From: a virus | Lineage: Duplodnaviria; Heunggongvirae; Uroviricota; Caudoviricetes | IMG/VR virus record: IMGVR_UViG_2541047753_000004 | Strand: one strand, 5' to 3' | Length of the DNA stretch: 54,394 nucleotides | Shown here: positions 1,210-52,890 of the stretch, in pieces | Numbering within the stretch: position 1 is the first letter of the stretch | Layout of the letters: the number at the start of each line of letters is the position of its first letter | Made by a program: the position numbers and the translations under genes | Notes under the pieces: generated by a model | Database searches by the model: none | What the model saw: the letters and a program-made list of their open reading frames with translations, nothing else | What the model was told of the DNA's origin: nothing

Positions 1210-1243
1210 GCTGACTCCCGGCTTAAAAGGCCGGGAGGTGTTC

Positions 1244-2895: not shown

Positions 2896-3852
<957 letters not shown>

Positions 3853-4464: not shown

Positions 4465-4490
4465 GGTAGATCTCCCTGACAAAAGCAGGA

Positions 4491-4883
4491 ATGATGCCAT
4501 TTGCTCGTTATTTCTGCATTTTCATAAACGTTGGTTTGGGAGAAGGTTCAGCATTACCTGTTGGTGCACCTGCGCCTCAGCTTCCTGATATACCTACAAC
4601 TGTGTGGCTTAATTCCGTCCCAGCAGATCTTACTTCTGAAGACGGTTTAGATCTTCAAAGGGCTCACATGGCTGATCCACTGCCGTCTCTGGGCGGTGTA
4701 ATTATTTTTGCCAGGGCAGATTCGAGTGGGTGTGATACGGGATTTTCAACTCAGGGTTGTACTCCCGCAACTTTTAATGTTAGAGATTTACATGATGCTG
4801 GTGATAACCAGGTGCATATTAATTTCAATTCCAGTATCGCCGTAGCTGGTGTCGATGCTGTTTTTATTGCATTAGACTCATAA
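4491..4883 (+). CDS. Alternative tail-fibre C-terminal segment (silent in current orientation)
   Basis: ORF reads through the left crossover site (…GLGEGSALPV…); inversion would fuse it in frame to the constant fibre N-terminus at 6444-6721. Confidence 0.45.
   Translation: MMPFARYFCIFINVGLGEGSALPVGAPAPQLPDIPTTVWLNSVPADLTSEDGLDLQRAHMADPLPSLGGVIIFARADSSGCDTGFSTQGCTPATFNVRDLHDAGDNQVHINFNSSIAVAGVDAVFIALDS
4519..4544. repeat. Invertase crossover site (ix-like), left copy
   Basis: 26-bp site ttttcataaacgttggtttgggagaa; reverse complement TTCTCCCAAACC AA CGTTTATGAAAA resembles hix/gix-type sites. Confidence 0.7.
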
Positions 4884-35887: not shown

Positions 35888-36014
35888 TTTCATTACTGCA
35901 AATGCCCCTGCGGGGGCATTTATGGAAACGTAATTGACTCAATAATCGCCGGATGGTGAGGGCTTTCTTTTACCAGAATTCAGCGCGGTGCAGCGCATAT
36001 ACGTGGAGAACAAA

Positions 36015-36539
36015 ATGTCATTTATTAAAACTTTTTCCGGGAAGCATTTTTATTATGACAGGATAAATAAAGACGACATCGTTATTAACGATATCGCGGT
36101 TTCTCTTTCAAATATCTGTCGCTTTGCAGGACATCTTTCACATTTCTACAGCGTCGCCCAACATGCGGTGCTTTGCAGCCAACTGGTACCGCAGGAATTT
36201 GCTTTTGAAGCGTTAATGCATGATGCAACAGAAGCGTATTGCCAGGACATCCCGGCGCCACTGAAACGCCTTCTTCCTGACTATAAACGGATGGAAGAAA
36301 AAATAGACGCCGTAATCCGTGAGAAATACGGGTTACCCCCGGTTATGAGTACGCCCGTGAAATATGCCGATCTCATCATGCTGGCAACCGAACGCCGCGA
36401 TCTCGGGCTTGATGATGGCTCTTTCTGGCCCGTACTGGAAGGTATCCCGGCAACAGAGATGTTCAAAGTTATTCCACTGTCGCCAGGCCATACCTATGGG
36501 ATGTTTATGGAACGCTTTAAAGAGTTAACTGAGTCGTAA
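36015..36539 (+). CDS. HD-domain phosphohydrolase (YfdR-like)
   Basis: HD motif context HAVLCSQLVPQEF...ALMHDATEAY; start at MSFIKTF. Confidence 0.65.
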   Translation: MSFIKTFSGKHFYYDRINKDDIVINDIAVSLSNICRFAGHLSHFYSVAQHAVLCSQLVPQEFAFEALMHDATEAYCQDIPAPLKRLLPDYKRMEEKIDAVIREKYGLPPVMSTPVKYADLIMLATERRDLGLDDGSFWPVLEGIPATEMFKVIPLSPGHTYGMFMERFKELTES

Positions 36540-36647
36540 AAATCAGCACGTACGAATTCAAACTCTGCCATAAAAGAACATATAAGTAATTTATTAACAT
36601 ATAGATATAGGTTATATTACAAATTGAAAAATTATTGGAGAGCAACA

Positions 36648-37514
36648 ATGAATCAAAATCCATTCTCATTCTATGACTTTCTTGGATATTTAATACCAGG
36701 TGGTTTTTTTATCCTATTAATGTATTTCTGTGGTTTGACATTCGATCTAGATATTGTTATTGACTTAAGTGAATTACTCAGAGGTCAAAGTCAAATCTTT
36801 GGCATTTTGAACTACGCTTCAATAGTTATTATATCTTATATAGCTGGACATTTTATTTCTATCACGTCAGCATTTTTTATCGAAAAATACATGAATAAAG
36901 AATTAGGATATCCTTCCAAATATCTATTTAAAAAATTGATAGATACCTCAGAAAGCATTTGTAGCCCATCATGCGATGAGAGAAGCGCTGATAAAAAAAC
37001 AAAAATAAAGAATCGCATAATCAAATGCGTATTATGTCCAATAATACTATGGGATTTTATAACACAAAAACTATGTTATTCTCAATCTCTACCATTTCAT
37101 TTAGCTAATACAACATGGTTAATGATCAAAGAAGGTTATGAGAAAAAGTTCATAACAAATCGCCAATTATTACAAGATAAAAACGGACTTGATGATGATC
37201 TCTTCAGATTGGCATATCATTATGTTTATGAGTTTTCAAAACAACATCAAACAAAAATTCAAAACTATGTTGCATTATATGGTTTTTGCAGAAACATATG
37301 TTTAATCTTTATAATTTCATTTTGGGTATCAGTTCCAACCTTTATTTATCGATTATGTACTCATAGTGATTATCTTTATAGTTTACTTTCAATAATGCTT
37401 AGCTTTTTCTTCGTCTATGTTTTCTATGTTGGTTTTGTTAAATTTTATAGAAGATATACTTTAGAAGTATTAATGGCATTTGCTGTACTTCAAAGTAACG
37501 ACACTATTCGTTAA
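36648..37514 (+). CDS. AT-rich multi-pass membrane protein (cargo gene, unknown function)
   Basis: 288 aa from ATG with GGAGAG SD; hydrophobic helices at both ends; strongly AT-rich relative to neighbours. Confidence 0.55.
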   Translation: MNQNPFSFYDFLGYLIPGGFFILLMYFCGLTFDLDIVIDLSELLRGQSQIFGILNYASIVIISYIAGHFISITSAFFIEKYMNKELGYPSKYLFKKLIDTSESICSPSCDERSADKKTKIKNRIIKCVLCPIILWDFITQKLCYSQSLPFHLANTTWLMIKEGYEKKFITNRQLLQDKNGLDDDLFRLAYHYVYEFSKQHQTKIQNYVALYGFCRNICLIFIISFWVSVPTFIYRLCTHSDYLYSLLSIMLSFFFVYVFYVGFVKFYRRYTLEVLMAFAVLQSNDTIR

Positions 37515-37555
37515 TAATGTTGCTCCCGTGTGCAGACGGGATAATGGAGAAACGT

Positions 37556-37762
37556 ATGCTGAACCTCGATTGTGTTCCTATCTCAACTTATTGCAAAGAA
37601 ACTGGCGAAACTCCTGAAGCAATAAACAAACGTGTACAGCGCGGTGTTTGGCGTGAAGGTGTTCAGGTTTTAAAGGTTGAAGGCGTTAAGGAGAGGTGGA
37701 TTGATCTTAGTGAGGTTGCAAAATGGGCCAGACAAAACTGCTCAAACTACCGCGCGGCGTAA
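37556..37762 (+). CDS. xis: Excisionase (Xis-like)
   Basis: Small basic protein immediately upstream of and overlapping int; start uncertain (37517, 37544 or 37556). Confidence 0.55.
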   Translation: MLNLDCVPISTYCKETGETPEAINKRVQRGVWREGVQVLKVEGVKERWIDLSEVAKWARQNCSNYRAA

Positions 37763-38895
37763 CAATCAGGAAACACCGCCAGGGAGAAACGATCAATATA
37801 ACTTTCACCTACAAAGGAGTTAGATGTCGTGAGCCGCTTTCCAATCTGGAAGTAACACCAAAGAACATTAAATACGCCGAGCGTACACTCGGCGAAATCC
37901 ATAATAAGATCGAAAGGGGAACATTCATTTATGCAGAATATTTTCCCCGTTCTGCTCGTTTGAAAATTTTTGGTAATGCTGCTGCAGGCAAAACGGTAAA
38001 GGTGTACCTGGACGAATATCTTGAAATCTGCGAAACAAGAAAACTTTCACCCTCTACGATTGGTGGCTATAAAAAATGCCGTAGTGCGTTAGCCTCACTT
38101 CACATTTGCCCTGCAAGTGAATTAACACCAGCAACCCTGAAAGCGTGGATTCAAAGCCAGAAAACAACCTTAAAAACCATTCGCAACCAGTTATCTTTCC
38201 TACGGTCAGCACTTGATGAAGCCGTGACCGATGGGGTACTTCAAATTAACCCCGTATCGTTAGTAACAGCTTCGCGCTACCAAAGTGATAAGTCAGAAGC
38301 AGAAAGCAGCTATGTGGTTGATCCGCTATCACCAGCAGAAGTTGATGCATTACTAGCAGCAGCCGGAAACAAACAATGGGAAAATCTGTTCCGGTTCGCC
38401 ATACATACAGGCCTGCGTAGTTCTGAATTATGTGCCCTACGATGGCATGATATCGACTTTGTTGGAAAAACAGCCCATGTTCAGAGCGCAAGTGTTGTCG
38501 GAGTTATCAAAGGAACAAAGACAAAAGCCGGTACCCGTAAAGTTGAACTGACTGAAGAAGCAATGTTGGCGTTGATAAACCAGAAGCCATTTACATTCAT
38601 GAAGGATGCTACTGTCTTTGAAGATCCAAAGACCAATAAACCCTGGGCAAGTGCTGATGCAATTAGGAAAAAAGCATGGGTGCCAACATTGCGAAAAGCA
38701 GGTATTCGTTACAGAAACCCATATCAAACCAGGCATACATTCGCCACCAGCCATATCAGCCGGGGAGCAAACCTGTTTTGGCTTGCGGCTCAAATGGGCC
38801 ATAAAGGGCCTGAAATGTTATTCAGGCACTATGGACAATACTTGAAAGAGTATGATGGGAGGGCAAGTATCAAGGATAAAAAGGCTTTATTTTAA
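37723..38895 (+). CDS. int: Tyrosine integrase (lambda Int family)
   Basis: 390 aa; C-terminal catalytic region R...HTFATSHISRGANLFWLAAQMGHKGPEMLFRHYGQY with conserved R, H-x-x-R and Tyr. Confidence 0.9.
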   Translation: MGQTKLLKLPRGVTIRKHRQGETINITFTYKGVRCREPLSNLEVTPKNIKYAERTLGEIHNKIERGTFIYAEYFPRSARLKIFGNAAAGKTVKVYLDEYLEICETRKLSPSTIGGYKKCRSALASLHICPASELTPATLKAWIQSQKTTLKTIRNQLSFLRSALDEAVTDGVLQINPVSLVTASRYQSDKSEAESSYVVDPLSPAEVDALLAAAGNKQWENLFRFAIHTGLRSSELCALRWHDIDFVGKTAHVQSASVVGVIKGTKTKAGTRKVELTEEAMLALINQKPFTFMKDATVFEDPKTNKPWASADAIRKKAWVPTLRKAGIRYRNPYQTRHTFATSHISRGANLFWLAAQMGHKGPEMLFRHYGQYLKEYDGRASIKDKKALF

Positions 38896-39486
38896 GTCAT
38901 TATGCCAATCGTCTACTGTTTGAAACCAAATTTTTAACCTTTGCATAAAGGTACGATCCTTTTTGGGAGGGTGGTACCTTTGAAAAGAAGTATGTAACGC
39001 TTCGATAACTCCCATACAAGCATCAATTACTTCTTGTGCTTTAACCGGGCGATCGGTATCTGAAAGCTTGTGAGCGACCTCACAATCCAGAGTTGCTTTC
39101 TCTAGTACAGATGAGAACACCTCGTCAGGTATATACAGTCCTCTGCTTTCCAAAATGCAAATCAGTTTGGAAACTTGTTGAGCTTTAGCCAAGATAGTTA
39201 ACAAGTATGAAACAGAAGCCTTTGTTCTATCCTTTTGCAACCTTAACAATCGATGCTTTGATGCTCTAATTTTAGGTTGAGTTGTCTGACTGAGCCAATA
39301 GTTAGAAGAAATATCAGAAATTTCAATAACTAACTTTGAAATAGCATCAATAATTGATTTCGATTCAGAACGTGTCGCCAGTTTTACAGAATTATTGTAC
39401 GCAACTCGCCATCCAATGAAAACTAAGCAGACGCTAACTACTGTGATACACCACGAATACTGTCCTATTTGTGCTACTAATGACAT
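38887..39486 (-). CDS. Single-pass membrane protein, unknown function (cargo operon gene 3)
   Basis: N-terminal TM helix WCITVVSVCLVFIGW, helical soluble domain; last gene of a 3-gene minus-strand operon; start at internal ATG 39486 (ORF track begins at TTG 39504). Confidence 0.5.
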   Translation of the reverse strand: MSLVAQIGQYSWCITVVSVCLVFIGWRVAYNNSVKLATRSESKSIIDAISKLVIEISDISSNYWLSQTTQPKIRASKHRLLRLQKDRTKASVSYLLTILAKAQQVSKLICILESRGLYIPDEVFSSVLEKATLDCEVAHKLSDTDRPVKAQEVIDACMGVIEALHTSFQRYHPPKKDRTFMQRLKIWFQTVDDWHNDLK

Positions 39487-39514
39487 TGGTTCCGTACTGA
39501 TCAACTATCGCCTC

Positions 39515-39841
39515 TTATACTCTTTCTGGTTGTGCTAAATCAATAAATTTATCAATCTGTTCTTTGTAGAACGGAACATCACTTTTTATAATCAAACGTG
39601 CTTTAACGTTGGCTTTAGGTATCCCTTCCTTACGGATGAGACCTCCAAACGCCTCTTCTAAGAAAGAGGAACCAACACCCAGTGCTATACCGCGAAAATC
39701 AACCACAATCTCCTGTTCAGTACCCTTCAGCGCAGGCACCAAAAACTCTCTACGAAATCTTTCCGCACTGTGTGGGCTATCCGTTGTGTAACGTCCGAAA
39801 GGTGTTCTGGAGAACTCCTTCGCTATGACGATATTTCTCAT
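39515..39841 (-). CDS. STAS-like small protein (DUF4325-like) (cargo operon gene 2)
   Basis: 108 aa; IVVDFRGIALGVGSSFLEEAFGG resembles the STAS / anti-sigma-antagonist core; AGGAG SD; starts 4 nt after upstream stop. Confidence 0.55.
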   Translation of the reverse strand: MRNIVIAKEFSRTPFGRYTTDSPHSAERFRREFLVPALKGTEQEIVVDFRGIALGVGSSFLEEAFGGLIRKEGIPKANVKARLIIKSDVPFYKEQIDKFIDLAQPERV

Positions 39842-39845
39842 AAAA

Positions 39846-40757
39846 TCATCTCCTGGGAACCAGCGACCATTGTAGTAAAGTACCCGGTATGTACTCAGCT
39901 AGCTTCTCACATCGAGGACTACTGTCATTAGAATTATAGCTATAACGAGCCCTTCCTGTTAGTATCAGAAGTGTCTCATTATCCTCACAACCTGCCCCAA
40001 TAGGTCTCTTGATATCTTCAGAGCCATTTCCCCGTCCGGAACCAACAAAGCGGGATTCCCCTACTAACATAGCTCTTTCCACAGAAGATACTTCGTTTTG
40101 AATGCTATGACCATCACCATTAGGCACGAAACTTCTATAAATCCCCAATCCAAGGTCACAAACGATAAAAACGACTTTATTTTCATCACGATTGAACCAA
40201 GCGCACTGCCACCATCGTTTACCTTTGAGAAGCTGAATATCTGACTCGAACCCCTCATCTTCATACGCATGATGAGAAACATTGAGCAAAGCTTCACTAA
40301 TCGCTGTCAGCAGTAAGCCTAACTGTTCATTATTAAGCAGAGCACTTTTCTGCAGCATGAGTACTGTTTCAACAATATGCTCGTAAGGTTCGACAGCTGA
40401 CTGAAAGTATCGTTCCTCCCTCGTAAGTGCATTCAGTTTCTCTTCTGTGCCAGCAAGCAAAGCACGAGCAAGTCCAGTACCAACGATCCATCTATGCCCA
40501 GATGGGTTATCATCCTTTTTAGGCCATTTAAAACGTATAAAATTAGGGTCCCGGGTTAAAAATTGAGCTCTATTTACTATGGCAAAGAACAGTACCGATG
40601 CCGCAGCTGAGGCAAATTTTACCTTGGACAAATCAACTATAACTCGACCTTTATTTTTTACTCCAATCGATTCAATCGAGTTGATGAAGTTCAATGTCCC
40701 AGCCCTAGAATCATCTGAGTAAATGCAAAATTTGCTTGGGGGTACCAGTATGGTCAT
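39846..40757 (-). CDS. GHKL-type ATPase/kinase with N-terminal STAS-like region (cargo operon gene 1)
   Basis: Bergerat-fold motifs: N-box EALLNVSHHAY, G1 DLGLGI, G2 GSGRGNG; N-terminal RVIVDLSKVKFASAAASVLFFAI resembles STAS beta-strand/helix. Confidence 0.6.
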   Translation of the reverse strand: MTILVPPSKFCIYSDDSRAGTLNFINSIESIGVKNKGRVIVDLSKVKFASAAASVLFFAIVNRAQFLTRDPNFIRFKWPKKDDNPSGHRWIVGTGLARALLAGTEEKLNALTREERYFQSAVEPYEHIVETVLMLQKSALLNNEQLGLLLTAISEALLNVSHHAYEDEGFESDIQLLKGKRWWQCAWFNRDENKVVFIVCDLGLGIYRSFVPNGDGHSIQNEVSSVERAMLVGESRFVGSGRGNGSEDIKRPIGAGCEDNETLLILTGRARYSYNSNDSSPRCEKLAEYIPGTLLQWSLVPRR

Positions 40758-40909
40758 AGCGATGTCATTCTTATACGATGGATTTATAGATTATCTACTA
40801 TTCATAGTTGGTTATGAAGACTGGGATATAACAGTAAAAGATACGTGTAAGATCCGCAAGATAGTTAATGTCGAAAAAAATCATTAATTACATCAAGTTA
40901 GTGATATTT

Positions 40910-40941
40910 GGACTCGGGTTCAACTCCCGCCAGCTCCACCA
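40910..40941 (+). other. ssrA: 3'-terminal ~32 nt of ssrA (tmRNA): attachment-site repeat
   Basis: GGACTCGGGTTCAACTCCCGCCAGCTCCACCA matches the ssrA 3' end (T-arm, acceptor, CCA) with one mismatch; upstream sequence is not ssrA. Confidence 0.75.
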
Positions 40942-40974
40942 CTTGCTCTTCCGGATACGTCCGGAGAAATCCTG

Positions 40975-41010
40975 AAAGCCCGCATGGCACAAGCTTTGCG
41001 GGCTTTTTTG
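40975..41010 (+). terminator. Intrinsic terminator (ssrA terminator-like)
   Basis: AAAGCCCGCA...TGCGGGCTTTTTTG. Confidence 0.6.
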
Positions 41011-41125
41011 TGTCTATCTTTGTCCGAGGATATCCAGCTAAATCCAGTGATTATTGGTATATGTTTAGGTATACGGTAAGATGTATACCTAAAAGCGTAT
41101 ACCAATACTCTGAGGTAGGATAATC

Positions 41126-42319
41126 GTGGCACGTACAACACGCCCTCTTACTAACACTGAACTATCACGTGCTAAAGCAACTGAAAAGGATCTAACGCTA
41201 CATGATGGTGATGGGCTTTTTCTACTCATAAAAACGAACGGAAGGAAGTTGTGGCGTTTCCGATACCAGAAGCCTGTATCAAAACAGAGAACCATGATTA
41301 GTTTAGGAACGTTCCCCGCCCTATCTCTGGCTGAGGCCAGAAACGTGCGTGCTGAGTATCTTTCCTTATTAGCCCGGGGTATTGATCCACAAACATACAG
41401 TAAGCAAGTCTCAGAACATCAACAGATTGCGATTGATAGTATTTTTTCAAAAGTTGCCACAAATTGGTTTGCCATAAAAAGCAATAACGTCACACCTGAT
41501 TATGCAAAGGATATATGGCGATCCTTAGAGAGGGACATTTTCCCTGCTATCGGTGAGATTCCTGTTCAGGAAATAAAAGCCCGCACATTAATTGAAGCCC
41601 TAGAGCCAATTAAAGCTCGTGGGGCACTTGAGACTGTTCGTCGTTTAGTACAACGTATTAATGAAATTATGATTTATGCTGTTAATACTGGTCTGATAGA
41701 TGCTAACCCTGCTTCAGGCATTGGTATGGCATTTGAAAAACCTAAAAAACAGCACATGCCAACGCTTAGACCTGAAGAATTACCGAAACTCATGCGTTCA
41801 ATAACAATGTCTAATTTATCTATTCCAACTCGTTGTTTGATTGAATGGCAACTCTTAACACTTGTACGCCCTGCAGAAGCTTCCAATGCAAAGTGGATAG
41901 AGATCGATTTCGAAGCTAAACTATGGATAATACCAGCCAATAGAATGAAGGCAAAGCGGGAACATATTGTTCCATTATCACTTCAGACATTAGATATTCT
42001 TGAAATTATGAAGCCAATCAGTTCACATCGAGAATATATTTTTCCTAGCAGGAATAACCCCAATCAACCAATGAACAGTCAGACGGCAAATGCAGCCTTA
42101 AAGCGCATCGGTTATGGTGGTAAGTTGGTTGCACACGGACTGCGTTCGATAGCAAGTACAGCAATGAATGAAGCTGGTATAAATCCAGATATTATCGAAG
42201 CAGCACTTTCCCATTGTGATAAAAATGAGGTTAGAAGAGCATATAATCGAACAACCTACTTGGAACAAAGAAAAGAGCTTATGAATTGGTGGGGTAGTTT
42301 CATTTCAAAAAACAAATAA
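41126..42319 (+). CDS. int: P4-type tyrosine integrase
   Basis: 397 aa, GTG start, N-terminal MARTTRPLT...DGDGL...LGTFPALSLAEAR typical of P4/CP4-57 IntA; adjacent to ssrA 3' end. Confidence 0.9.
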   Translation: MARTTRPLTNTELSRAKATEKDLTLHDGDGLFLLIKTNGRKLWRFRYQKPVSKQRTMISLGTFPALSLAEARNVRAEYLSLLARGIDPQTYSKQVSEHQQIAIDSIFSKVATNWFAIKSNNVTPDYAKDIWRSLERDIFPAIGEIPVQEIKARTLIEALEPIKARGALETVRRLVQRINEIMIYAVNTGLIDANPASGIGMAFEKPKKQHMPTLRPEELPKLMRSITMSNLSIPTRCLIEWQLLTLVRPAEASNAKWIEIDFEAKLWIIPANRMKAKREHIVPLSLQTLDILEIMKPISSHREYIFPSRNNPNQPMNSQTANAALKRIGYGGKLVAHGLRSIASTAMNEAGINPDIIEAALSHCDKNEVRRAYNRTTYLEQRKELMNWWGSFISKNK

Positions 42320-42329
42320 GGATATAGTG

Positions 42330-43445
42330 ATGAATAATAAAGATTTTCCATGCAAAGCCTCAAATATCTATGATAAAAATATAAATTTTTTATTTGGCTC
42401 AGGCTCCTCTGCTTCATATATTCCTACTCTCTATCTAGATAAAAACACTACTTATGAAACATTACTTACACATGAGGATTGTGAGGGTGTCAAGGACTTC
42501 ATATTATGTTCTTATTTCAATAATATCATTAGAAAAACATTTTGTGTTAAACCTAATAGTGAAGACAAAAAATATAATTCTACTTTAGCAAACTATAGCT
42601 ACTTTATTGATGAACTAATCAAATTATTAGAGAAAAAAGGGGCAAATCAAATAAGGCGAGCGAATATTTTTACAACAAATTATGATCTTTTTTTCGAAAC
42701 TGCGGCTGATGATATTTTAAATAATAAAACATTTCATTTCAATGACGGTGGTCTAGGTTTCAAAAGCCGGAAATTGAACATTAGTAATTTTCATATTACT
42801 GCTTGGCATCAAGGTACGCATGATATGTACAAACATGAAATTCCAACAGTAAACTTAATAAAAATGCATGGTTCTGTTTCTTGGTGTAGAGATATTAATG
42901 AAACGATTAGTATTAATTACACTCAAGAAGAACCACCAAAGTTTAGACTAGATACAAAAAAAGACATTAATGATTTAGTCACCACCTTAAACGAAACAAG
43001 CGATAATCTCGTTAGTTATTTAAATTTATCTACAAGCGATCAAGAAACACTTCAAGAATTTAAATCTTATTACAACAACTTAGCTATAGTTAGCCCAACT
43101 AAAGAAAAATTTTCTGAAACTGTTTTTCAACAACATTATTACCAATGTTTACGATTGCTAAGTTATGAATTAGAGAAACCACAAACTGTATTAATTTGTT
43201 TTGGTTTTTCTTTTCAAGATGAACACATACGTGAGATTATAAAAAGATCATTAAGTAACCCTACTCTTAAGGTCTTTGTTTTTTGCTACTCAAAATCCAG
43301 CATGGAAAGTATACAGCACATTATCAATGACCAACGAATAACCTATATTCTTCCTATAGAAGATGATCATACAATTTCATTTAAACCGTTTATAGATAGA
43401 GTATTTAGATCTGAACACGGAGATTGGATTACATGGAAGAACTAA
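42330..43445 (+). CDS. SIR2-like domain protein (NADase-type defence effector)
   Basis: FLFGSGSS (Rossmann Gly-rich), TTNYDLFFE, MHGSVSW motifs; AT-rich; AAGGA SD. Confidence 0.7.
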   Translation: MNNKDFPCKASNIYDKNINFLFGSGSSASYIPTLYLDKNTTYETLLTHEDCEGVKDFILCSYFNNIIRKTFCVKPNSEDKKYNSTLANYSYFIDELIKLLEKKGANQIRRANIFTTNYDLFFETAADDILNNKTFHFNDGGLGFKSRKLNISNFHITAWHQGTHDMYKHEIPTVNLIKMHGSVSWCRDINETISINYTQEEPPKFRLDTKKDINDLVTTLNETSDNLVSYLNLSTSDQETLQEFKSYYNNLAIVSPTKEKFSETVFQQHYYQCLRLLSYELEKPQTVLICFGFSFQDEHIREIIKRSLSNPTLKVFVFCYSKSSMESIQHIINDQRITYILPIEDDHTISFKPFIDRVFRSEHGDWITWKN

Positions 43446-45205
43446 TTGTTGGTAATGTTACCCAAATAAAGGGCACAACAGTAAGGGCCAAAATCAATCA
43501 TGACTTTTTTCAGTCAACATACTTTCATAAAGGTAAAATACTACGAGGTATCTCTATAAATGAATTTGTTTTGATTAAAAAAGGTTATCACGATATCGTC
43601 GGAAAGATTATTGGTGAAGAAATTGTTGAAAACATCAATATTAGAAGCGATGAAATTGAACAAAAAAAATATGACCGTTTTGTAGAACTGAATATTTTAG
43701 GGTATTTTTTTGAGAGTTCATTTTATTCCGGTATAAAATTTTTACCAATGATAAATGACAGCTTACACTTAATTTCAGACGAGAAGATATCAGAAATATA
43801 TAAGTTTAGCAAAAACACTAAAGCACCTTTAATAAACATAGGGAAATCTATGTTAGAGGAGTTGCCAATTAACATACCAATAAATGGTATTTTTAATTCA
43901 CACATAGGCATATTTGGAAACACTGGAAGTGGCAAGTCCAACACTCTTGCAAAACTTTATCACTCTCTAATAAACCTTATAACAACAAAAGAAAGAGTTA
44001 TATCAAAATCAAGTTTTGTTTTGATTGATTTTAATGGTGAATACAGCACATTTGCTACGTCATTTCCAGATTTGTGCGAACAAGTCAATCTCAACACAAA
44101 GAATTCCGGTGATAAACTAACTTTCACTGATGATGAATTTTGGGATGATGAATTATTATCGGTATTGTTTTCTGCAACTGAAAAAACTCAAAAGCCATTT
44201 CTTAGTCATTTAATTAAAAATAGAGAAAAATATAATGGTAAATTGGAGGATTACTTACAAACAACTATCCACAGTATGTTTTCTCCTAATCCACACAGGG
44301 AAACAATAAATTTATTAAAAAGCCTTGCCCCTTACTTTTCAGAGAGAGCACAGGGTAAAATACTTGAAGAGTTATCACAATTCTCATGGCATTCTGGGCA
44401 AAATAAGTATTTGCACTCAAAATACAACTTCATTGATAAAATGGAAGATGCTTTACAGGCTTTAGATGCAACATATAAATCCAAGTTTAAGTTAAACAGC
44501 GTTTTTGATGAAGTTGCAATCCGATCTATTCTACAACTAATTAATTCAGTATCACGTAATTATGTACAATATGATCATATATATCCGCTAATTAATAAAA
44601 TAACGGCAATGACTCCTGCCCTATCCAAAGTAATTAATATCAGAAACGAAACAAAAAATAAAAAACCTATATATATAGTGTCATTAAAAGAGTGCAATCA
44701 ATTAATCAAAAAAACCATTCCAATGATGCTTGCAAAATGTTCATTCTTAGAGCACAAGTCATCTAAAAATACAAAGGAAAGCTTCCACCTAATTATAGAT
44801 GAAGCACACAACATATTGTCTGAAACATCTGTCAGAGAGGCGGAAACATGGAAAGATTATAGGCTTGAGTTATTTGAGGAAATAATAAAAGAGGGAAGGA
44901 AGTTTGGGTTCTTCGTTACAATTTCGAGTCAACGACCTTTTGACATCTCTCCCACAATTGTTTCCCAACTTCATAATTATTTTATTCATCGATTAGTGAA
45001 CGAAAATGATTTGTTTTTGTTAAAAAATACTTTAAGCACCCTTGATGCGGCATCAAGATCACTAATTCCAACACTTCCTCCTGGTGGGTGTATAGTTTCA
45101 GGAACAGCTTTCCACACCCCATTACTTGTTCAAATCGACAGATTAGCTGAGGAAAATGCTCCTAACAGCGATACTCTTGATTTAGAAAAATTGTGGGATA
45201 TTTAA
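43424..45205 (+). CDS. HerA-like ATPase (DUF87)
   Basis: Walker A GIFGNTGSGKSNT, Walker B LIIDEAHN; overlaps SIR2 gene by 22 nt. Confidence 0.75.
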   Translation: MDYMEELIVGNVTQIKGTTVRAKINHDFFQSTYFHKGKILRGISINEFVLIKKGYHDIVGKIIGEEIVENINIRSDEIEQKKYDRFVELNILGYFFESSFYSGIKFLPMINDSLHLISDEKISEIYKFSKNTKAPLINIGKSMLEELPINIPINGIFNSHIGIFGNTGSGKSNTLAKLYHSLINLITTKERVISKSSFVLIDFNGEYSTFATSFPDLCEQVNLNTKNSGDKLTFTDDEFWDDELLSVLFSATEKTQKPFLSHLIKNREKYNGKLEDYLQTTIHSMFSPNPHRETINLLKSLAPYFSERAQGKILEELSQFSWHSGQNKYLHSKYNFIDKMEDALQALDATYKSKFKLNSVFDEVAIRSILQLINSVSRNYVQYDHIYPLINKITAMTPALSKVINIRNETKNKKPIYIVSLKECNQLIKKTIPMMLAKCSFLEHKSSKNTKESFHLIIDEAHNILSETSVREAETWKDYRLELFEEIIKEGRKFGFFVTISSQRPFDISPTIVSQLHNYFIHRLVNENDLFLLKNTLSTLDAASRSLIPTLPPGGCIVSGTAFHTPLLVQIDRLAEENAPNSDTLDLEKLWDI

Positions 45206-45219
45206 TATCGCTACGCGCA

Positions 45220-45238
45220 GTGCTTTCCCCGCCTCGCC
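45220..45238. other. cos cohesive-end sequence (P2/P4 type)
   Basis: gtgctttccccgcctcgcc is the reverse complement of the 19-nt GGCGAGGCGGGGAAAGCAC I recall for P2/P4. Confidence 0.7.
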
Positions 45239-45402
45239 CGCACGCTTTGCGGGGCGGTTTTAATGCAGTTGCACTGACACGCTCAGACCGCGCCGGGAAT
45301 GGCGCGGTCTGCAGAAAATGAGGCAGGGAAACGCATGCAAAGCCATGCACCTTATCGATGCATGGCTTTTTTCAGTAAAAACAGGCGGATTTTCGGGAAA
45401 TT

Positions 45403-45975
45403 TTACACAGACTGACGTGATGCCAGTTGCGCACTTTTACGCGAAAAAATCATGTTCTGCGCAGGGGTAAATTTTTCACGGCTGTCGTCCACCGAAGCCG
45501 CGTCAGGCCTGAATCCGATGGTCGTTAAAATGTCGCTATCCTGTGCGGAATAATTAATTTTTTCCCCCTTCGCAAGCCAGGACAGAAGGGCTTCACGCAG
45601 GGCATCTGTGGCACGCTGTATGGCACAGTTTCGGGCAATGGCCGTCAGCTCACTGTAGCCCATCAGCTCCGGTGCCAGTGCCGCCGCCAGTGCTGTGCCG
45701 TGCTGCTGCATAAAATCATTCAGCCGGTCGCGGATGCTGATGTGCTGAACGGCTTCATGCGAACGAATATAACGACCAGCGGCCTGATTCACCTGCCATT
45801 TTCTGACTTCGATAATATTGCGTAATTCGTCCAGGCGACTGACGTTTCTGCCTTCTCCTGACAGAAGCCGCAGATATTCCTGTTCGGCCGCTGCCAGCTC
45901 ATTTTTGCGTTGCAGCCATGCTGCTTTGTTATTCTGACAGGTGTCAAAGGCCTGCTGTAAGGCTGTGCTTTCCAT
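45403..45975 (-). CDS. psu: Polarity suppression protein Psu
   Basis: 190 aa, length and sequence as recalled for P4 Psu. Confidence 0.85.
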   Translation of the reverse strand: MESTALQQAFDTCQNNKAAWLQRKNELAAAEQEYLRLLSGEGRNVSRLDELRNIIEVRKWQVNQAAGRYIRSHEAVQHISIRDRLNDFMQQHGTALAAALAPELMGYSELTAIARNCAIQRATDALREALLSWLAKGEKINYSAQDSDILTTIGFRPDAASVDDSREKFTPAQNMIFSRKSAQLASRQSV

Positions 45976-46048
45976 CGTTATCTCTTTCTCATCATGCTGA
46001 AGAATAAAAATACGGTGTGCGGCGACGGCCGGTGTTAACCGGCAGCCC

Positions 46049-46549
46049 TCATTCCAGACGCAGCGAATATGATTGTGTTTTTAAGCGTACTGGCGGCAGT
46101 TCCTGTTTTTCATGCAGGCTTTCTGCCAGTTCGTCCGGCGTGACCGGGCGGACAATGAAACGGTTGATGGTCTGAAGCGTTTTAAACACCAGACCACAGC
46201 CCGGATCCGTGCACACATAAAAACGCTCGGTGACTTCCTGAGACAGACGCCGCGATGTTCTTGACAGTGCAAGGCCTTTACATCTCCGACAACAATATCC
46301 GGTAACAAGCATTCTTTTCGGGCGTTTCATACTGCCGGAGGCTGACGTCAGTGAATCGCGGTATCTCTGTTTGCCTGAAATGTATTCCATTCCTGAATCT
46401 TTACTGTCAGAGAAAAAGCTTTCACTCGCTTCAAATGTCGCAGAGCAATAAATATTCCGGCACTGTGCAATCATTATCTTGGTGCCATCGTCCATGAAAT
46501 GTGCGCGGCGGGTGTGAGCAACATGACCACACGACGGGCAGTAAATCAT
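46049..46549 (-). CDS. delta: Late gene activator Delta (Ogr/Delta zinc-finger family)
   Basis: 166 aa with two CxxC...CxxC zinc-finger units (MIYCPSCGH..., ...CCRRCKG...CTDPGCG). Confidence 0.85.
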   Translation of the reverse strand: MIYCPSCGHVAHTRRAHFMDDGTKIMIAQCRNIYCSATFEASESFFSDSKDSGMEYISGKQRYRDSLTSASGSMKRPKRMLVTGYCCRRCKGLALSRTSRRLSQEVTERFYVCTDPGCGLVFKTLQTINRFIVRPVTPDELAESLHEKQELPPVRLKTQSYSLRLE

Positions 46550-47280
46550 GACAGCAGTCCTCTGGCCTTAAGCACTGCTCCCTGCTGGTCTATTTTGTCC
46601 TGCCACACCTTGCGCTGTGCCGGTGTGCCTGCCACCTCATAATCCATGTGAGGAAGTGTTGCCGCTGACAGTCCGGTCAGCCGGAGAACCGGCTCGCCGG
46701 TGAGGCTGATTTGCATCTGTTTAATTTTCTGTTCCAGCGATGATTTCACCTGCTGCATGACAGCCTTTTCCGGTGCGACGTAGCCCTGATGGCCGGTGGT
46801 GTTGGCGAGCGGATTTTCCTGTACCAGAATGCTCAGATGCATTGCCCGGACAAGCGCCTCACAGGTTTCATTCAGGGCGTGTTCCAGCTCATGCTCTGCA
46901 TACAGACTCAGAAGGTGATGATGTGCCTTCCGGTAGGCGGTGGCCGTGCTGTCACACGCCCCTTTCAGGCGTTCGCGTTCAAAATTCAGCACCACGGCCA
47001 GATTGTCATATTCCTGTACCAGTTCCCGGCGTGCCACGCGCTCAATGTGGCGCTGTTTCAGCTCGTCGCTCAGGACACCACCGGCTGCACGAAAGGCCGT
47101 GCGCCAGTCGTCAGCGTCGTTTCCGTCGGCCTGCGCCAGCGCATTTTTTTCCTGCTCTGCCCGTTCAATGGCCGTGACGGTCTCATCCATCAGGCGGGCG
47201 TTCTCAAGATGGGCGGCTCTGGCCTTTTCCAGTTGTGCCAGTGCGGGTTGCAGATATTCAGGGATGGTGTTGTCAGACAT
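46546..47280 (-). CDS. sid: Capsid size determination protein Sid
   Basis: 244 aa from MSDNTIPEY; position in psu-delta-sid operon. Confidence 0.8.
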   Translation of the reverse strand: MSDNTIPEYLQPALAQLEKARAAHLENARLMDETVTAIERAEQEKNALAQADGNDADDWRTAFRAAGGVLSDELKQRHIERVARRELVQEYDNLAVVLNFERERLKGACDSTATAYRKAHHHLLSLYAEHELEHALNETCEALVRAMHLSILVQENPLANTTGHQGYVAPEKAVMQQVKSSLEQKIKQMQISLTGEPVLRLTGLSAATLPHMDYEVAGTPAQRKVWQDKIDQQGAVLKARGLLS

Positions 47281-47298
47281 TTTCCGGCTCCTCGTCAC

Positions 47299-47832
47299 TT
47301 CAGGTTAAGAAAATTGTGACGTACACCGGACAACAACACGACGCATTGCAGATGTGCCAGCCCTGACACAGGAGACTCATCCTCAGACCGGCAAGCCAGG
47401 AAAAGGTCGCAGGAAAAACCGGCTTACTGTTTGTTTTTTTATATTTTACTGTTCACCTCTGTTCACCATAAGAAAAAAGACAAGTAATACAGTAAGTTAA
47501 ATGGTGAACAATCGCAGTAATGACTGTTCACCGTCTGTTCACCACTGTTCACCCGTTGATGGGCTTTTTGTGCTGTTTATTACTGTTTGTTTTTATTAAT
47601 TCGCCGGGAATGAATAAGAAAAAACGATTTGTATTTCACTATAAAAATTACGAATTGCTTTAAGTGGCTTTAAATGACTTTAAGTGGAGATGAACAAAAA
47701 ACACACAAGCATTATAAGACTGCCGGAACAAATCCCCCCTGTTGCGTCTGCTGAAAATATTCACAAAATAAAGCGCTACCCGAAGCCGGACGGACTTATC
47801 CGGTGCTGTATGGACATTAACGAGGTAGCCCG
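47299..47832. promoter_or_regulatory. P4-like Psid/PLL/PLE promoter and immunity region (expected site of CI RNA)
   Basis: Intergenic region between sid and orf88 by P4 gene order; no RNA gene could be delimited by eye. Confidence 0.35.
47449..47553. repeat. ori-like cluster of TGTTCACC octamers (alpha-binding type I repeats)
   Basis: Six copies of TGTTCACC/GGTGAACA within ~105 bp, ~4.8 kb from crr. Confidence 0.65.
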
Positions 47833-48099
47833 ATGCAAGCTGTTTTTTCTTCCCCGTCTCCCGCCCCTGTGACGCCACTGATGCCGCTGCCGGACATCAC
47901 GCAGGAGCGTTTTTTACGTCTGCCGGAAGTGATGCACCTGTGCGGCCTGTCACGCTCGACCATCTATGAACTCATCCGTAAGGGGGAATTTCCGCCGCAG
48001 GTGAGTCTTGGCGGTAAAAATGTGGCCTGGCTGCACTCTGAAGTCACTGCATGGATGGCCGGGCGCATTGCCGGACGCAAACGGGGGTACGACGCATGA
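47833..48099 (+). CDS. AlpA-family HTH regulator (P4 orf88-like)
   Basis: 88 aa; [29 protein letters not shown]; GAGG SD. Confidence 0.7.
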
Positions 48100-48695
48100 T
48101 GATGCCCGCTCTGCAAAAACGCCCTTTTTCTGGCTTGCCTTTTTCCGGCATTTGCGGATATAGTTTTTCCGCTGCCGCAAAATCGGCAGCCGGGCGTGGA
48201 AACCCGAGCAATTCACAGGCGACATATGACGCGCCATGCGTCTTTTTTTGTGTCGCAATCAACGCCACAGAGCGCCAGATTATGGTGTGGTGTGTGGTCA
48301 GTCGTGCAGATGGCATTCCGTGCATCCTGCCCGCGTCCGCTCATTATGCCGCAGAGTCAATGGTAGCTCAGGCGGGGCAGCCTCCGGGCTGGCCGGTATC
48401 CTGTGAAGCCGGTATTTCCACCCCCGTCTGGGCTATCGCCATCGAGCGTGGAAACTCCGGCGATAGCGTTATTTGCTATTCACAGGAGGCTGCCATCATG
48501 GCTACAACCCTTACCCCCTCACACCCTGAATTTGTCTTTGTGTTTGCGGCTGTCCGTCGCGCAGACCGTCATCCCCGTATCTGTATGCTTCGCACCGTCG
48601 CCGGTGATGAACGCAGTGCCCGCCGTTCCCTTGTCCGTGACTATGTGCTCTCCCTTGCTGCCCGTCTGCCGGTGGTGGAGGTGTCCCGTGCGTAA
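48096..48695 (+). CDS. Hypothetical protein (P4 orf199-like)
   Basis: 199 aa from MMMPALQ; size and position. Confidence 0.45.
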
Positions 48696-48975
48696 TAAAA
48701 AAGCCCCTCAGACCGTCTCAGCGCGTCATGACGCCCGTGAACACCTCAGCATTGAGGCTTACCATAAGCTCAACCGCGCCAGCGCCGTATCCCGGTTTGT
48801 TGGGGGTGATTTGATTCACCGTGAACTCTCCGGCCTGCATCAGCTCTACATTCCGCATATTTTCAGCTACCTGAATGAAGATATTGATTTTGTGCTGAAT
48901 GAGCTGAAAGCCAAAGGCCTGTGCCGCGATTTTCTCGCCCAGCAGAAAGACCGGGGAGACAGGACGCATGTTTGA
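48688..48975 (+). CDS. eps: Epsilon-like derepression protein (putative)
   Basis: 95 aa from GTG with GGAGG 7 nt upstream, overlapping upstream stop; position before orf151. Confidence 0.45.
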
Positions 48976-49423
48976 TTTTCCCCAGCCCGGTGAGATTTAC
49001 CGTTCTGCCGGTTTTCCCGATGTGGCCGTGGTCGGCATTCTGGAAGACGGTATTCCGTGGGAAATGCCGTACCGCTGCCCGGACATTGTCTGGAACCCGT
49101 ACCGCCGTAAATTCAGTATCCTTGTGCGTATCCTCGCTGACGGGCGCACCACAGACATCCCGCTGGGGCGTTTTCTGCGGGAATTTACCTGTGACCGTCC
49201 TGACCTGTTTAAACGCAGCCCCGTAAACCGGCATGCGGTACTGAAAGAAATGGCCGGAGACCCGGAATTACAGAAATGGCGGGAGAAATATCTGGATATT
49301 TACCCGCAGGACACTGTTCCGGCCAGCCGGGCGGCACCGGTGGCGCGGGAATGGCGGGAAATTCCCCGCACGGAGCCTGACCCGGAAATCACCCCGGATA
49401 ACAGTTACCGCAATTATCTGTAA
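48968..49423 (+). CDS. P4 orf151-like protein
   Basis: 151 aa, size and position. Confidence 0.6.
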   Translation: MFDFPQPGEIYRSAGFPDVAVVGILEDGIPWEMPYRCPDIVWNPYRRKFSILVRILADGRTTDIPLGRFLREFTCDRPDLFKRSPVNRHAVLKEMAGDPELQKWREKYLDIYPQDTVPASRAAPVAREWREIPRTEPDPEITPDNSYRNYL

Positions 49424-49558
49424 TTAAAAAACGACACCCGAAAAATTAAATGTGCGTATTCGCGCAGGGATACGCACGTCTTCAGGAGACGCAGATATGC
49501 CTTATCAGTTAATGCAACCGGCACGGAATGCAGTCATCTGTCACAGGGAGGAAAGCAA

Positions 49559-49879
49559 ATGAAAACACCCTTACCGCCCGTCTTACGCGCTGCCCTTTAC
49601 CGTCGCGCTGTCGCCTGTGCCTGGCTGACCGTGTGCGAACGTCAGCACCGCTACCCGCATCTCACCCTTGAGTCACTGGAGGCGGCCATCGCCGCTGAGC
49701 TGGAAGGCTTTTATCTGCGCCAGCACGGTGAGGAAAAAGGGCGTCAGATAGCCTGTGCCCTGCTGGAAGATTTAATGGAATCCGGCCCCCTGAAGGCCGC
49801 GCCGTCGCTGTCCTTTCTCGGGCTGGTTGTGATGGATGAACTCTGTGCCCGTCACATAAAAGCGCCGGTACTGCACTGA
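49559..49879 (+). CDS. P4 orf106-like protein
   Basis: 106 aa immediately upstream of alpha. Confidence 0.55.
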
Positions 49880-49893
49880 AGGAGAACAACACC

Positions 49894-52227
49894 ATGAAAA
49901 TGAACGTAACCGCCACCGTCAGCCATGCGCTCGGCCACTGGCCGCGTATTCTCCCGGCGCTGGGGATTCAGGTGCTGAAGAACCGTCATCAGCCCTGTCC
50001 GGTCTGTGGCGGGAGTGACCGCTTCCGTTTTGATGACAGGGAGGGGCGTGGCACCTGGTACTGCAATCAGTGTGGTGCCGGTGACGGCCTGAAACTGGTT
50101 GAAAAGGTGTTTGGTGTTTCCCCGTCCGACGCGGCCGCAAAGGTGGCTGCCGTGACCGGCAGCCTGCCACCGGCTGACCCGGCAGTGACGGCCGCCGCCG
50201 TTGCTGAAACAGAAGCCGCCCGGAAGAACGCCGCCGCACTGGCACAAACCCTGATGGCGAAAACCCGTCCCGGAACCGGTAACGCCTACCTGACCCGCAA
50301 GGGCTTTCCCGGCCGGGAATGCCGGATGCTGACCGGCACACACAGAGCCGGTGGCGTGAGCTGGCGCGCCGGTGACCTTGTGGTGCCACTGTATGACGAC
50401 AGCGGCGAACTGGTTAACCTTCAGTTAATCAGTGCTGACGGCCGTAAGCGCACCCTGAAAGGCGGACAGGTCAGGGGCACCTGTCACATCCTTGAAGGAC
50501 AGAATCAGACCGGAAAACGTCTGTGGATAGCGGAGGGATACGCGACCGCACTTACCGTGCATCACCTGACCGGTGAAACGGTGATGGTGGCGCTTTCTTC
50601 CGTGAACCTCCTTTCTCTGGCCAGCCTTGCCCGGCAGAAGCATCCGGCCTGTCAGATTGTCCTTGCCGCAGACCGTGACCTCAGCGGTGACGGCCAGAAA
50701 AAAGCCGCCGCAGCCGCAGATGCGTGTGAAGGTGTTGTTGCCCTGCCGCCGGTCTTCGGTGACTGGAATGATGCCTTCACGCAGTACGGCGGGGAAGCCA
50801 CCCGTAAGGCCATTTACGATGCCATCCGGCCACCGGCTGAAAGCCCGTTCGACACCATGAGCGAAGCGGAGTTTTCCGCCATGAGTACCAGCGAAAAGGC
50901 CATGCGTATCTATGAGCATTACGGCGAGGCGCTCGCGGTCGATGCCAACGGCCAGCTTCTGTCCCGCTATGAAAATGGTGTCTGGAAGGTGCTGCCGCCA
51001 CAGGACTTTGCCCGGGATGTGGCCGGGCTGTTTCAGCGGCTGCGCGCGCCGTTCTCCTCCGGGAAGGTGGCCTCCGTGGTGGACACCCTGAAGCTGATTA
51101 TTCCGCAGCAGGAAGCCCCCTCCCGCCGCCTGATTGGCTTTCGTAACGGCGTGCTCGACACGCAGAACGGCACGTTCCACCCGCACAGTCCGTCACACTG
51201 GATGCGCACCCTGTGCGATGTGGATTTCACCCCACCGGTGGAAGGGGAAACGCTGGAAACCCACGCCCCCGCGTTCTGGCGCTGGCTTGACCGTGCCGCC
51301 GGTGGCCGTGCGGAAAAACGCGACGTGATTCTGGCCGCACTGTTTATGGTGCTGGCAAACCGCTACGACTGGCAGCTCTTTCTGGAGGTGACCGGTCCCG
51401 GCGGCAGCGGCAAAAGTATCATGGCCGAAATAGCCACCCTGCTGGCCGGGGAGGATAACGCCACGTCGGCCACCATTGAGACGCTGGAATCCCCGCGTGA
51501 ACGTGCCGCGTTAACTGGCTTCTCACTGATACGCCTGCCGGACCAGGAAAAATGGAGCGGCGACGGTGCCGGACTCAAGGCCATCACCGGCGGCGATGCG
51601 GTGTCCGTGGACCCGAAATACCGGGATGCGTACTCCACGCATATCCCGGCGGTGATTCTGGCCGTGAACAATAACCCGATGCGCTTCACCGACCGCAGCG
51701 GCGGCGTGTCACGCCGGCGGGTGATTATTCACTTCCCGGAACAGATAGCCCCGCAGGAGCGCGACCCGCAGCTTAAGGACAAAATCACCCGCGAGCTGGC
51801 GGTCATCGTGCGTCACCTGATGCAGAAATTCAGCGACCCGATGCTCGCCCGGTCACTGCTTCAGTCCCAGCAGAACTCAGACGAGGCGCTGAACATCAAA
51901 CGGGATGCCGACCCGACGTTTGATTTTATCGGCTATCTGGAAACCCTGCCGCAGACCAGCGGCATGTATATGGGGAACGCCAGTATCATCCCGCGCAATT
52001 ACCGTAAATACCTCTATCACGCCTATCTGGCCTACATGGAGGCAAACGGCTACCGGAATGTACTCAGTCTGAAAATGTTCGGGCTGGGGCTGCCGGTGAT
52101 GCTGAAGGAATACGGACTGAATTACGAGAAGCGCCATACCAAACAGGGGATACAGACCAACCTGACGCTGAAAGAGGAAAGCTACGGCGACTGGCTGCCA
52201 AAATGTGACGACCCTGCGACAGCCTGA
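49894..52227 (+). CDS. alpha: Alpha primase-helicase
   Basis: 777 aa; N-terminal zinc-binding CPVCGGSDRFRFDD...YCNQCG primase region, central Walker A GPGGSGKS helicase region. Confidence 0.9.
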   Translation: MKMNVTATVSHALGHWPRILPALGIQVLKNRHQPCPVCGGSDRFRFDDREGRGTWYCNQCGAGDGLKLVEKVFGVSPSDAAAKVAAVTGSLPPADPAVTAAAVAETEAARKNAAALAQTLMAKTRPGTGNAYLTRKGFPGRECRMLTGTHRAGGVSWRAGDLVVPLYDDSGELVNLQLISADGRKRTLKGGQVRGTCHILEGQNQTGKRLWIAEGYATALTVHHLTGETVMVALSSVNLLSLASLARQKHPACQIVLAADRDLSGDGQKKAAAAADACEGVVALPPVFGDWNDAFTQYGGEATRKAIYDAIRPPAESPFDTMSEAEFSAMSTSEKAMRIYEHYGEALAVDANGQLLSRYENGVWKVLPPQDFARDVAGLFQRLRAPFSSGKVASVVDTLKLIIPQQEAPSRRLIGFRNGVLDTQNGTFHPHSPSHWMRTLCDVDFTPPVEGETLETHAPAFWRWLDRAAGGRAEKRDVILAALFMVLANRYDWQLFLEVTGPGGSGKSIMAEIATLLAGEDNATSATIETLESPRERAALTGFSLIRLPDQEKWSGDGAGLKAITGGDAVSVDPKYRDAYSTHIPAVILAVNNNPMRFTDRSGGVSRRRVIIHFPEQIAPQERDPQLKDKITRELAVIVRHLMQKFSDPMLARSLLQSQQNSDEALNIKRDADPTFDFIGYLETLPQTSGMYMGNASIIPRNYRKYLYHAYLAYMEANGYRNVLSLKMFGLGLPVMLKEYGLNYEKRHTKQGIQTNLTLKEESYGDWLPKCDDPATA

Positions 52228-52278
52228 CCCACCTGACCGGCATCTGCCGGTCTTTTTTTATCCCTGAATTCCCCGAAG

Positions 52279-52551
52279 GTGAACAATCCACTGTTCACCC
52301 TTCACCGTATATTCACCTGTTATCACACTGAAATTAAAAGAGAAAAACGAAAGGTGAACAGTGTGAACAATCAAATCAAAAAAAACTTTTTTTCTCCCTG
52401 TGTGATTTCAGTACGGGGGATTAATCACCGGTATGAGTCACACCGGCAGAATGCCGGAGGTGAAGAATCGAATGTTCACCCTTCACCCATTATTCACCAC
52501 CTATCATACTGAAATAAAAGGAGAAAAAAGAAAGGTGAACAGTGTGAACAG
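52279..52551. repeat. crr (cis replication region): two ~120-bp direct repeats rich in TGTTCACC octamers
   Basis: Duplicated block ...TGTTCACCCTTCACC...ATTCACC...GAAAGGTGAACAGTGTGAACA separated by ~60 bp, downstream of alpha. Confidence 0.75.
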
Positions 52552-52712
52552 TTCTTTCGAAAAAAAATTTTTTTTCTGTACGATATAGCATCAATCCAAG
52601 TAAAAATGCGCTTTCATTTCACATTAACTTACAGCCATTGGTATACGATTAGGTATACGTACAAAAACTGAATTAAACAAAATCATTAAAAATCAAAACA
52701 ATACAGCATTTA

Positions 52713-52735
52713 TTCAAACTCCGCCAGCCCACCAA
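52713..52735 (+). other. Degenerate ssrA 3'-end repeat (candidate right junction of the satellite)
   Basis: ttcaaactccgccagcccaccaa aligns to ssrA TTCAACTCCCGCCAGCTCCACCA with about 4 differences. Confidence 0.4.
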
Positions 52736-52861: not shown

Positions 52862-52890
52862 AAAGCCCGCTGATGCGGGCTTTTTTATTG
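52862..52890 (+). terminator. Intrinsic terminator
   Basis: AAAGCCCGC tgat GCGGGC TTTTTT. Confidence 0.55.

Follow-up and report, generated by a model that had tools for sequence, protein, structure and literature searches.

The 54,394-nt viral stretch examined here (IMG/VR record IMGVR_UViG_2541047753_000004, called the window in what follows) carries at 40910-52735 what is very probably an 11.8-kb integrated satellite of the P4 family, composed of the replication, immunity and helper-exploitation modules of phage P4 and of a left arm swapped for an ssrA-specific integrase of the IntA type and a SIR2-HerA pair, the latter lodged in the known hotspot between int and cos. The first-pass annotation of this DNA had described a complete P4-like satellite at ssrA, next to a prophage not related to P2, and had added that any helper must lie elsewhere or that the satellite is stranded.

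When 40910-52735 was compared by megablast with phage records, positions 45239-52573 matched phage P4 (NC_001609 / X51522) from 11624 to 4291 in one single alignment, with 98.5% identity over 7.3 kb; the divergence from P4 is limited to the left 4.3 kb of the element. At the protein level nine P4 proteins gave full-length and gap-free matches by tblastn, at 98.2-100% identity—Orf199 through the old “cI137” frame—so that the series of protein sizes first read as that of P4 (190/166/244/88/199/95/151/106/777 aa) is borne out. The annotation had named a poor alignment to P4-family genomes, or essential genes disrupted on closer inspection, as what would speak against it; the alignment to the P4 reference is that given above and no essential gene is disrupted. 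All the hallmarks it had listed, from int to crr, were recovered at or near the places assigned to them, by megablast and tblastn and by the cos 19-mer, the octamers and the crr repeats.

The core genes are intact. On the minus strand lies first psu (45403-45975, 190 aa, 99.5% identical to P4 Psu by tblastn, Pfam Psu 296 bits), whose product decorates the capsid and antagonises Rho, then delta (46049-46549, 166 aa, 98.2% identical to P4 Delta, Pfam Ogr_Delta in two stretches), the activator of the late promoters of P2 and P4, and then sid (46546-47280, 244 aa, 99.2% identical to P4 Sid over its full length, and annotated as Sid in RefSeq relatives), the external scaffold that imposes a small capsid. 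The open reading frame (ORF) called mechanically for sid counts 250 aa from a GTG start; the ATG equivalent to that of P4 gives 244 aa.

The plus-strand operon begins with orf88, or vis (47833-48099, 98.9% identical to P4 Orf88, Pfam Phage_AlpA), for an excisionase/regulator of the AlpA family, followed by orf199 (48096-48695, Pfam Phage_ASH, NCBIfam Icd-like), the Ash/Icd-like part of the P4 left operon, inside which the old “cI137” frame of P4 is matched at 98.6% identity by tblastn. Next come epsilon (48688-48975, 95 aa, 100% identical to P4 Epsilon, Pfam Derepression), which derepresses the P2 prophage, orf151 (48968-49423, 98.7% identical to P4 Orf151) and orf106 (49559-49879, 100% identical to P4 Orf106, Pfam DUF5375). 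The last gene is alpha (49894-52227, 777 aa, 99.0% identical to P4 Alpha, Pfam Zn_Ribbon_Prim, Toprim_3, D5_N and Pox_D5), encoding the primase-helicase and origin-binding replication protein; a terminator-like site stands 3' of it at 52235-52252.

The cis-acting sites of P4 are equally in place. The cos region common to P2 covers 45214-45285 on the minus strand, with the 19-nt cohesive end GGCGAGGCGGGGAAAGCAC exact at 45220-45238, its sole copy in the window. The flanks match P2 cosL (25 nt, 100%) and cosR (48 nt, 93.8%), and also those of P2-like phages. The ori region, mapped from the P4 annotation through the alignment, extends from 47054 to 47777 (P4 9086-9809) and holds six TGTTCACC octamers at 47450-47553. 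The window contains 14 copies of this octamer, where 2.07 would be expected; five further copies are in crr, at 52278-52541. The crr itself (52273-52574, corresponding to 4291-4590 in P4) is built from a sequence of about 120 bp repeated in direct orientation, at 52273-52393 and again at 52454-52574, with octamers of the ori type. As to the RNAs, the CI immunity RNA, a C4-type antisense RNA, lies at 48356-48443 on the plus strand (Rfam C4, 76.6 bits), and its target sites with an isrK-type RNA lie at 48158-48248 (c4-a1b1 50.2 bits, isrK 74.9 bits), all three Rfam scores exceeding the gathering score. Two observations may be put beside these sites. The satellite copy of E. coli E5 (L002, 17380-17500) has one 120-bp crr repeat, the window copy having both, like P4. 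An ORF of 62 aa spans cos on the minus strand (45162-45350); it is called “hypothetical protein” in RefSeq relatives and is probably no real gene.

P4-like satellites have been defined by seven components (Moura de Sousa and Rocha 2021, PMC8628076; PMC10085698). In the present element we find an integrase gene with tyrosine integrase domains at 41126-42319; psu, delta and sid adjacent on the minus strand at 45403-47280; an AlpA-type regulator together with epsilon and Ash (Pfam Phage_AlpA, Derepression and Phage_ASH, 99-100% identical to P4); an Alpha of 777 aa with primase, Toprim and D5 domains; and, for packaging, the exact cos 19-mer with P2-like flanks in an element whose length suits a small capsid, 11,794 bp from att to att (52735 minus 40941) compared with 11,624 bp for P4. 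All seven family-defining components are undisrupted and cos, ori and crr accompany them, which, as far as sequence can tell, supports a complete P4-like satellite, as had been proposed at first.

The left arm is another matter. The P4 segment 20-4290, with gop, beta, cII, int and attP, is replaced, and three plus-strand genes are found there instead. Since gop, beta and cII have no tblastn match in the window and P4 Int is only 34% identical to the integrase present, a left arm of the P4 type was rejected. Thus the int of the earlier description exists, at 41126-42319 on the plus strand, but is not that of P4 itself. Its product of 397 aa (Pfam Arm-DNA-bind_3, Phage_int_M and Phage_integrase) reaches 599 bits with NCBIfam NF007246 for a cut-off of 434, and shares 62% identity with the IntA encoded by CP4-57, a cryptic prophage of E. 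coli K-12. The NF007246 score, the identity to IntA and the att sites derived from ssrA place it among the ssrA-specific integrases of the IntA/CP4-57 type.

Both attachment sites are 3' ends of ssrA, the gene for transfer-messenger RNA (tmRNA). At the left, attL (40910-40941, plus strand, GGACTCGGGTTCAACTCCCGCCAGCTCCACCA) is the 3'-terminal 32 nt of ssrA with its CCA end; it differs from the E. coli ssrA 3' end by one mismatch and the match is exact over 25 nt, at 40917-40941. At the right, attR (52713-52735, plus strand, TTCAAACTCCGCCAGCCCACCA) is a degenerate ssrA 3' end sharing the 8-nt core CCGCCAGC with attL. Apart from the ssrA 3' fragment no tmRNA or tRNA is detected in the window, either by ARAGORN or by Rfam at gathering thresholds. 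The location “at ssrA” is therefore correct for the att sites and not for the gene, which is outside the window; it is deduced from the att sequences and from sibling genomes. In E. coli E5 in particular an intact ssrA stands at the attL position, immediately before the same integrase, and the same satellite, SIR2-HerA included, sits directly between ssrA and glaH. In the window too glaH/csiD is downstream of the satellite.

The last 17 nt of attR (ACTCCGCCAGCCCACCA) and about 150 bp downstream of it correspond to the right-hand CP4-57 junction of K-12, whose 14-nt remnant bears the annotation of a pseudogene, psaA. The degeneracy of attR was considered as a sign of decay; since this sequence is the one that K-12 shows at the junction, decay was rejected, and attR thus corresponds to an old ssrA-type site belonging to the chromosome itself. 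Beyond this pseudo-ssrA end, the chromosomal segment 52736-52885, conserved at the right of CP4-57 in K-12, has at its end a strong hairpin of the terminator type (52862-52883); the segment probably represents the original trailer and terminator of ssrA, pushed away by one insertion after another.

Other small features are found between the att sites and the genes. A hairpin followed by a T run, borne by the element (40985-41014, plus strand, repeat family D5), is situated 3' of the ssrA end, and a similar arrangement follows ssrA at CP4-57 in K-12; judged by this position, it may serve as a substitute terminator for ssrA. Between attL and int, four (T/A)GGTATA(C/T) motifs, two direct and two inverted (41053-41104, repeat family D9), are likely arm-type integrase sites of the P' arm, by analogy with the arm repeats annotated in P4 attP. 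Two to three motifs of the GGTATAC type near the other end (52637-52660, also repeat D9, 91% identical to 41053-41075) are likely the integrase sites of the P arm.

The two genes that follow the integrase, on the plus strand, encode a SIR2-family protein (42330-43445, 371 aa, 30% guanine plus cytosine [GC], PADLOC PDLC04089 218 bits, Pfam SIR2_2) and a HerA-family ATPase (43433-45205, 590 aa, PADLOC PDLC04097 640 bits over the full length, Pfam DUF87), with 13 nt in common where the SIR2 gene ends and the HerA gene starts. HerA has relatives in solved complexes of both the SIR2-HerA and the HerA type. The SIR2 motifs TTNYD and KMHGS, with their Asn and His, are intact, as are Walker A (GNTGSGKS) and Walker B (IIDEAH) of HerA. 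The pair thus presents what PADLOC expects of a SIR2-HerA system, namely adjacent genes matching the system models, with conserved catalytic and ATPase motifs, and the SIR2-family protein is predicted to be the effector that degrades nicotinamide adenine dinucleotide (NAD), i.e. the NADase, of such a defence system. Matching the PDLC04089 and PDLC04097 models, the pair falls within the broad SIR2-HerA kind, in a subfamily other than the structurally studied one.

The earlier description of a hotspot between int and cos is well founded: related genomes whose integrase and P4 flanks are the same have other cargo in this stretch, be it a DUF2326 protein, hypothetical proteins or, in E. coli EC13, a P-loop NTPase of 908 aa, and SIR2 and HerA occupy it here; the int-cos stretch is therefore a variable hotspot. 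The GC content is 30-33% in the cassette, 40-44% in the integrase region and 49-64% in the P4 core, and the element is a mosaic of three parts. The composition changes abruptly at cos (42100-45100 compared with 45100-52300), a break consistent with the recent acquisition of the cassette from a source of low GC.

How common is this combination? Among 5,426 complete E. coli genomes (RefSeq), P4-type psu-delta-sid occurs in 867, and the satellite of the window, with at least 80% of the query covered at 98-99% identity, in 12; no genomes other than these 12 have a SIR2-HerA cassette with at least 99.6% identity, and each has a single copy. The head module of P2 is present in 1,536 of the 5,426 genomes, i.e. 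28%. As a proxy for the helper, a chimeric query joining the SIR2-HerA cassette to the P2 genes O-N was searched, and 11 of the 12 genomes with the cassette showed one or two extra places. As a query with only the cassette finds a single place in each genome, these extra places are matches to P2 O-N. The P2 genes are thus found elsewhere in 11/12 satellite-bearing genomes, against a base rate of about 28%. This suggests that the satellite lineage, as sampled by siblings which are not independent, normally coexists with a P2-like prophage elsewhere on the chromosome. Of the two outcomes foreseen at first, these genomes favour “elsewhere”, and a helper at a distant site is likely.

Several points nevertheless weigh against our interpretation. 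Neither protein of the cassette reaches the cut-offs of the antiphage equivalogs of NCBIfam, which stand for the structurally studied subfamily: SIR2_antiphage NF042942 scores 80 bits where 500 are required, and HerA_antiphage NF042943/4 scores 119 or 111 bits where 800 or 850 are required. Both are distant from the solved SIR2-HerA complexes (expect values, E, of 2e-13 and 3e-29), and a SIR2-HerA activity is here presumed from membership of the family alone. As for the element, attR is an imperfect copy of attL, identical over the 8-nt core only; no helper is seen within the 54-kb window, so that the satellite is only presumed to be mobile in this strain. Finally the 12 sibling genomes are not independent of each other, four being closely related isolates of enterotoxigenic E. 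coli.

Some of these points could lead to another view of the element, that of a stranded or domesticated island, immobile here for want of a helper or because its att site is now internal to a tandem array, and kept mainly as a carrier of SIR2-HerA. The degenerate attR fits this view, as does the lack of P2 head or terminase genes in the window; moreover a prophage resembling phage SfV now stands between the satellite and the functional ssrA, and one of the 12 siblings, C11, has no P2 O-N match on its chromosome. However, no gene is disrupted, and the proteins are 98-100% identical to those of a working phage. The same degenerate attR bounds CP4-57 in K-12, and CP4-57 is known to excise. Besides, a P4 prophage needs no resident helper, since an infecting P2 activates it; by this established biology an incoming P2 would suffice, and P2 capsid genes are in any case carried by 11 of the 12 siblings. 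We therefore regard a stranded island as unlikely.

On the left of the satellite lies a prophage. Its structural genes resemble those of phages SfII, SfI and SfV of Shigella (97-98% identity) and those of vB_EcoM-689R6 (about 97%), and it encodes a capsid of the HK97 type (PF05065), a sheath, and proteins like Mu gp48 and baseplate J; its integrase gene is at 37723-38895. Of 30 P2 proteins compared with it by tblastn, only the endolysin K (56%) and a chance-level stretch of 31 aa were matched. The initial judgement of a neighbour with Mu tail and HK97 head, not P2-like, was thus right: the baseplate is Mu-like, the relatives are SfV and SfII, and no relationship to P2 exists. The same prophage stops on its right exactly at the ssrA fragment in many genomes of E. 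coli, so that 40910-40941 is both the attR of the prophage and the attL of the satellite, the two elements forming a tandem array at ssrA.

Could the satellite exploit this neighbour, which would explain the tandem position? The adjacency and the common ssrA attachment site might suggest it, as might E. coli EC13, where the same two types of element follow each other in reverse order: ssrA comes first, a P4-like element next, and lastly a remnant of the integrase and cargo of the SfV-like prophage. On the other hand the P2-specific proteins of P4 have counterparts 98-100% identical in Sid, Psu, Delta and Epsilon, and the capsid of the neighbour is of the HK97 type (PF05065) and not a P2 gpN. 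The single copy of the P2/P4 cos 19-mer that the window contains belongs to the satellite, and no P2 head, terminase or cos homology was found in the neighbour. The proposal that the neighbour is a P2-like helper was accordingly rejected, on account of its PF05065 capsid, of the lack of P2-type gpQ, P, O, N and M and of a second cos, and of its kinship with SfV and SfII. The use of this prophage, of the SfV type, as a helper appears to us extremely improbable. The ssrA gene is a general landing pad: other islands are found there in K-12 and in strain F8, in which the prophage is followed by another integrase fragment. The adjacency therefore needs no functional link.

A less direct relation may still be imagined. 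The satellite would not be strictly bound to P2, and its tandem with an SfV-like prophage at ssrA, here and reversed in EC13, would reflect a functional link: the satellite might be excised upon induction of its neighbour, or the two elements might be moved as a unit when the three att copies of the ssrA type recombine. In a milder variant the divergent SIR2-HerA subfamily would be adapted to leave P2-like helpers unharmed, and this would account for the 11/12 siblings that carry both. We give these ideas very little credit. The exact tandem junction of the window was not found again, no genome among the 5,426 complete E. coli covering at least 80% of 36000-42400.

Returning to a P4-family satellite exploiting P2-like phages, a life cycle can be proposed from the established biology of P4 and P2. 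The CI RNA would keep the resident element repressed. Upon infection by a P2-like phage, or its induction, Cox and Ogr of P2 and Epsilon and Delta of P4 would cross-activate the two elements; Int and Vis would then excise the satellite and Alpha would replicate it from ori and crr. Sid would divert P2 gpN into small capsids, decorated by Psu, and the P2 terminase would package the satellite by means of the common cos site. In the meantime the resident SIR2-HerA, once activated, may deplete NAD+, aborting the infection by unrelated phages and protecting the host.

The SfV-like prophage has cargo of its own. Between its integrase and attR, at 38887-40757 on the minus strand, a cassette of three genes encodes a 205-aa protein (phrog_30059, of unknown function), a STAS-like DUF4325 protein of 108 aa and a 303-aa protein with a weak, sub-threshold match to histidine-kinase-like ATPases. 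This position is typical of moron or defence cargo; the cassette has no PADLOC match, and nothing informative on DUF4325 was found in the literature. In E. coli EC13 it is retained beside the truncated integrase. At the opposite side, past the tail-fibre and invertase end of the prophage, 1-3852 contains genes for an EcoRII-type restriction endonuclease, a C5 cytosine methyltransferase and a GIY-YIG domain protein, which look like restriction-modification cargo borne by the prophage near an ssrA-proximal junction outside the window; the ORF of the endonuclease begins at base 1, hence its start is provisional. A serine invertase of the Gin/Cin type (3910-4500, minus strand), beside the tail-fibre region, suggests invertible tail-fibre genes.

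Compared with P4, the element has the same gene order, protein sizes, cos, octamers and CI RNA, with 98.5% DNA identity from cos to crr; it differs by the replacement of P4 20-4290, by the lack of gop, beta and cII, by its integrase (34% identity) and by the use of an ssrA site instead of the leuX site. With CP4-57 of K-12 it shares the ssrA 3' attachment site, the degenerate right junction (psaA), the downstream DNA, an integrase 62% identical and a regulator of the AlpA family. Unlike it, CP4-57 is a decayed island of 22 kb devoid of psu, delta, sid, cos and P4 alpha. The solved SIR2-HerA (Nezha) systems (PDB 8j4u, 8su9, 8yhx) resemble the present pair in being two-gene operons with the N/H motifs of SIR2 and the Walker A and B motifs of HerA; the sequences are distant from those of 8j4u (E 2e-13 for SIR2, 1.6e-22 for HerA), and the present pair belongs to another subfamily.

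SIR2 and HerA have been listed among the defence systems of the P4 int-cos hotspot (Rousset et al. 2022, PMC9122126), and P4-like elements beside large prophages have been noted before (PMC8628076). With the P4-like satellites known to have a defence hotspot, our element shares all seven components (“Type A”) and a variable cargo between int and psu/cos, and nothing of substance separates it from them, apart from its exact tandem with an SfV-like prophage, absent from the complete E. coli genomes surveyed. It is thus an ordinary element of an already described kind, and the finding has little significance beyond correct annotation. Nevertheless it offers a clean example of module swapping in the satellites of the P4 family: a near-invariant core, an integrase module directing the element to ssrA instead, and a foreign defence cassette of 30% GC beside cos. 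For the host strain, it predicts a resistance to some phages through SIR2-HerA, and an interference with any P2-like phage.

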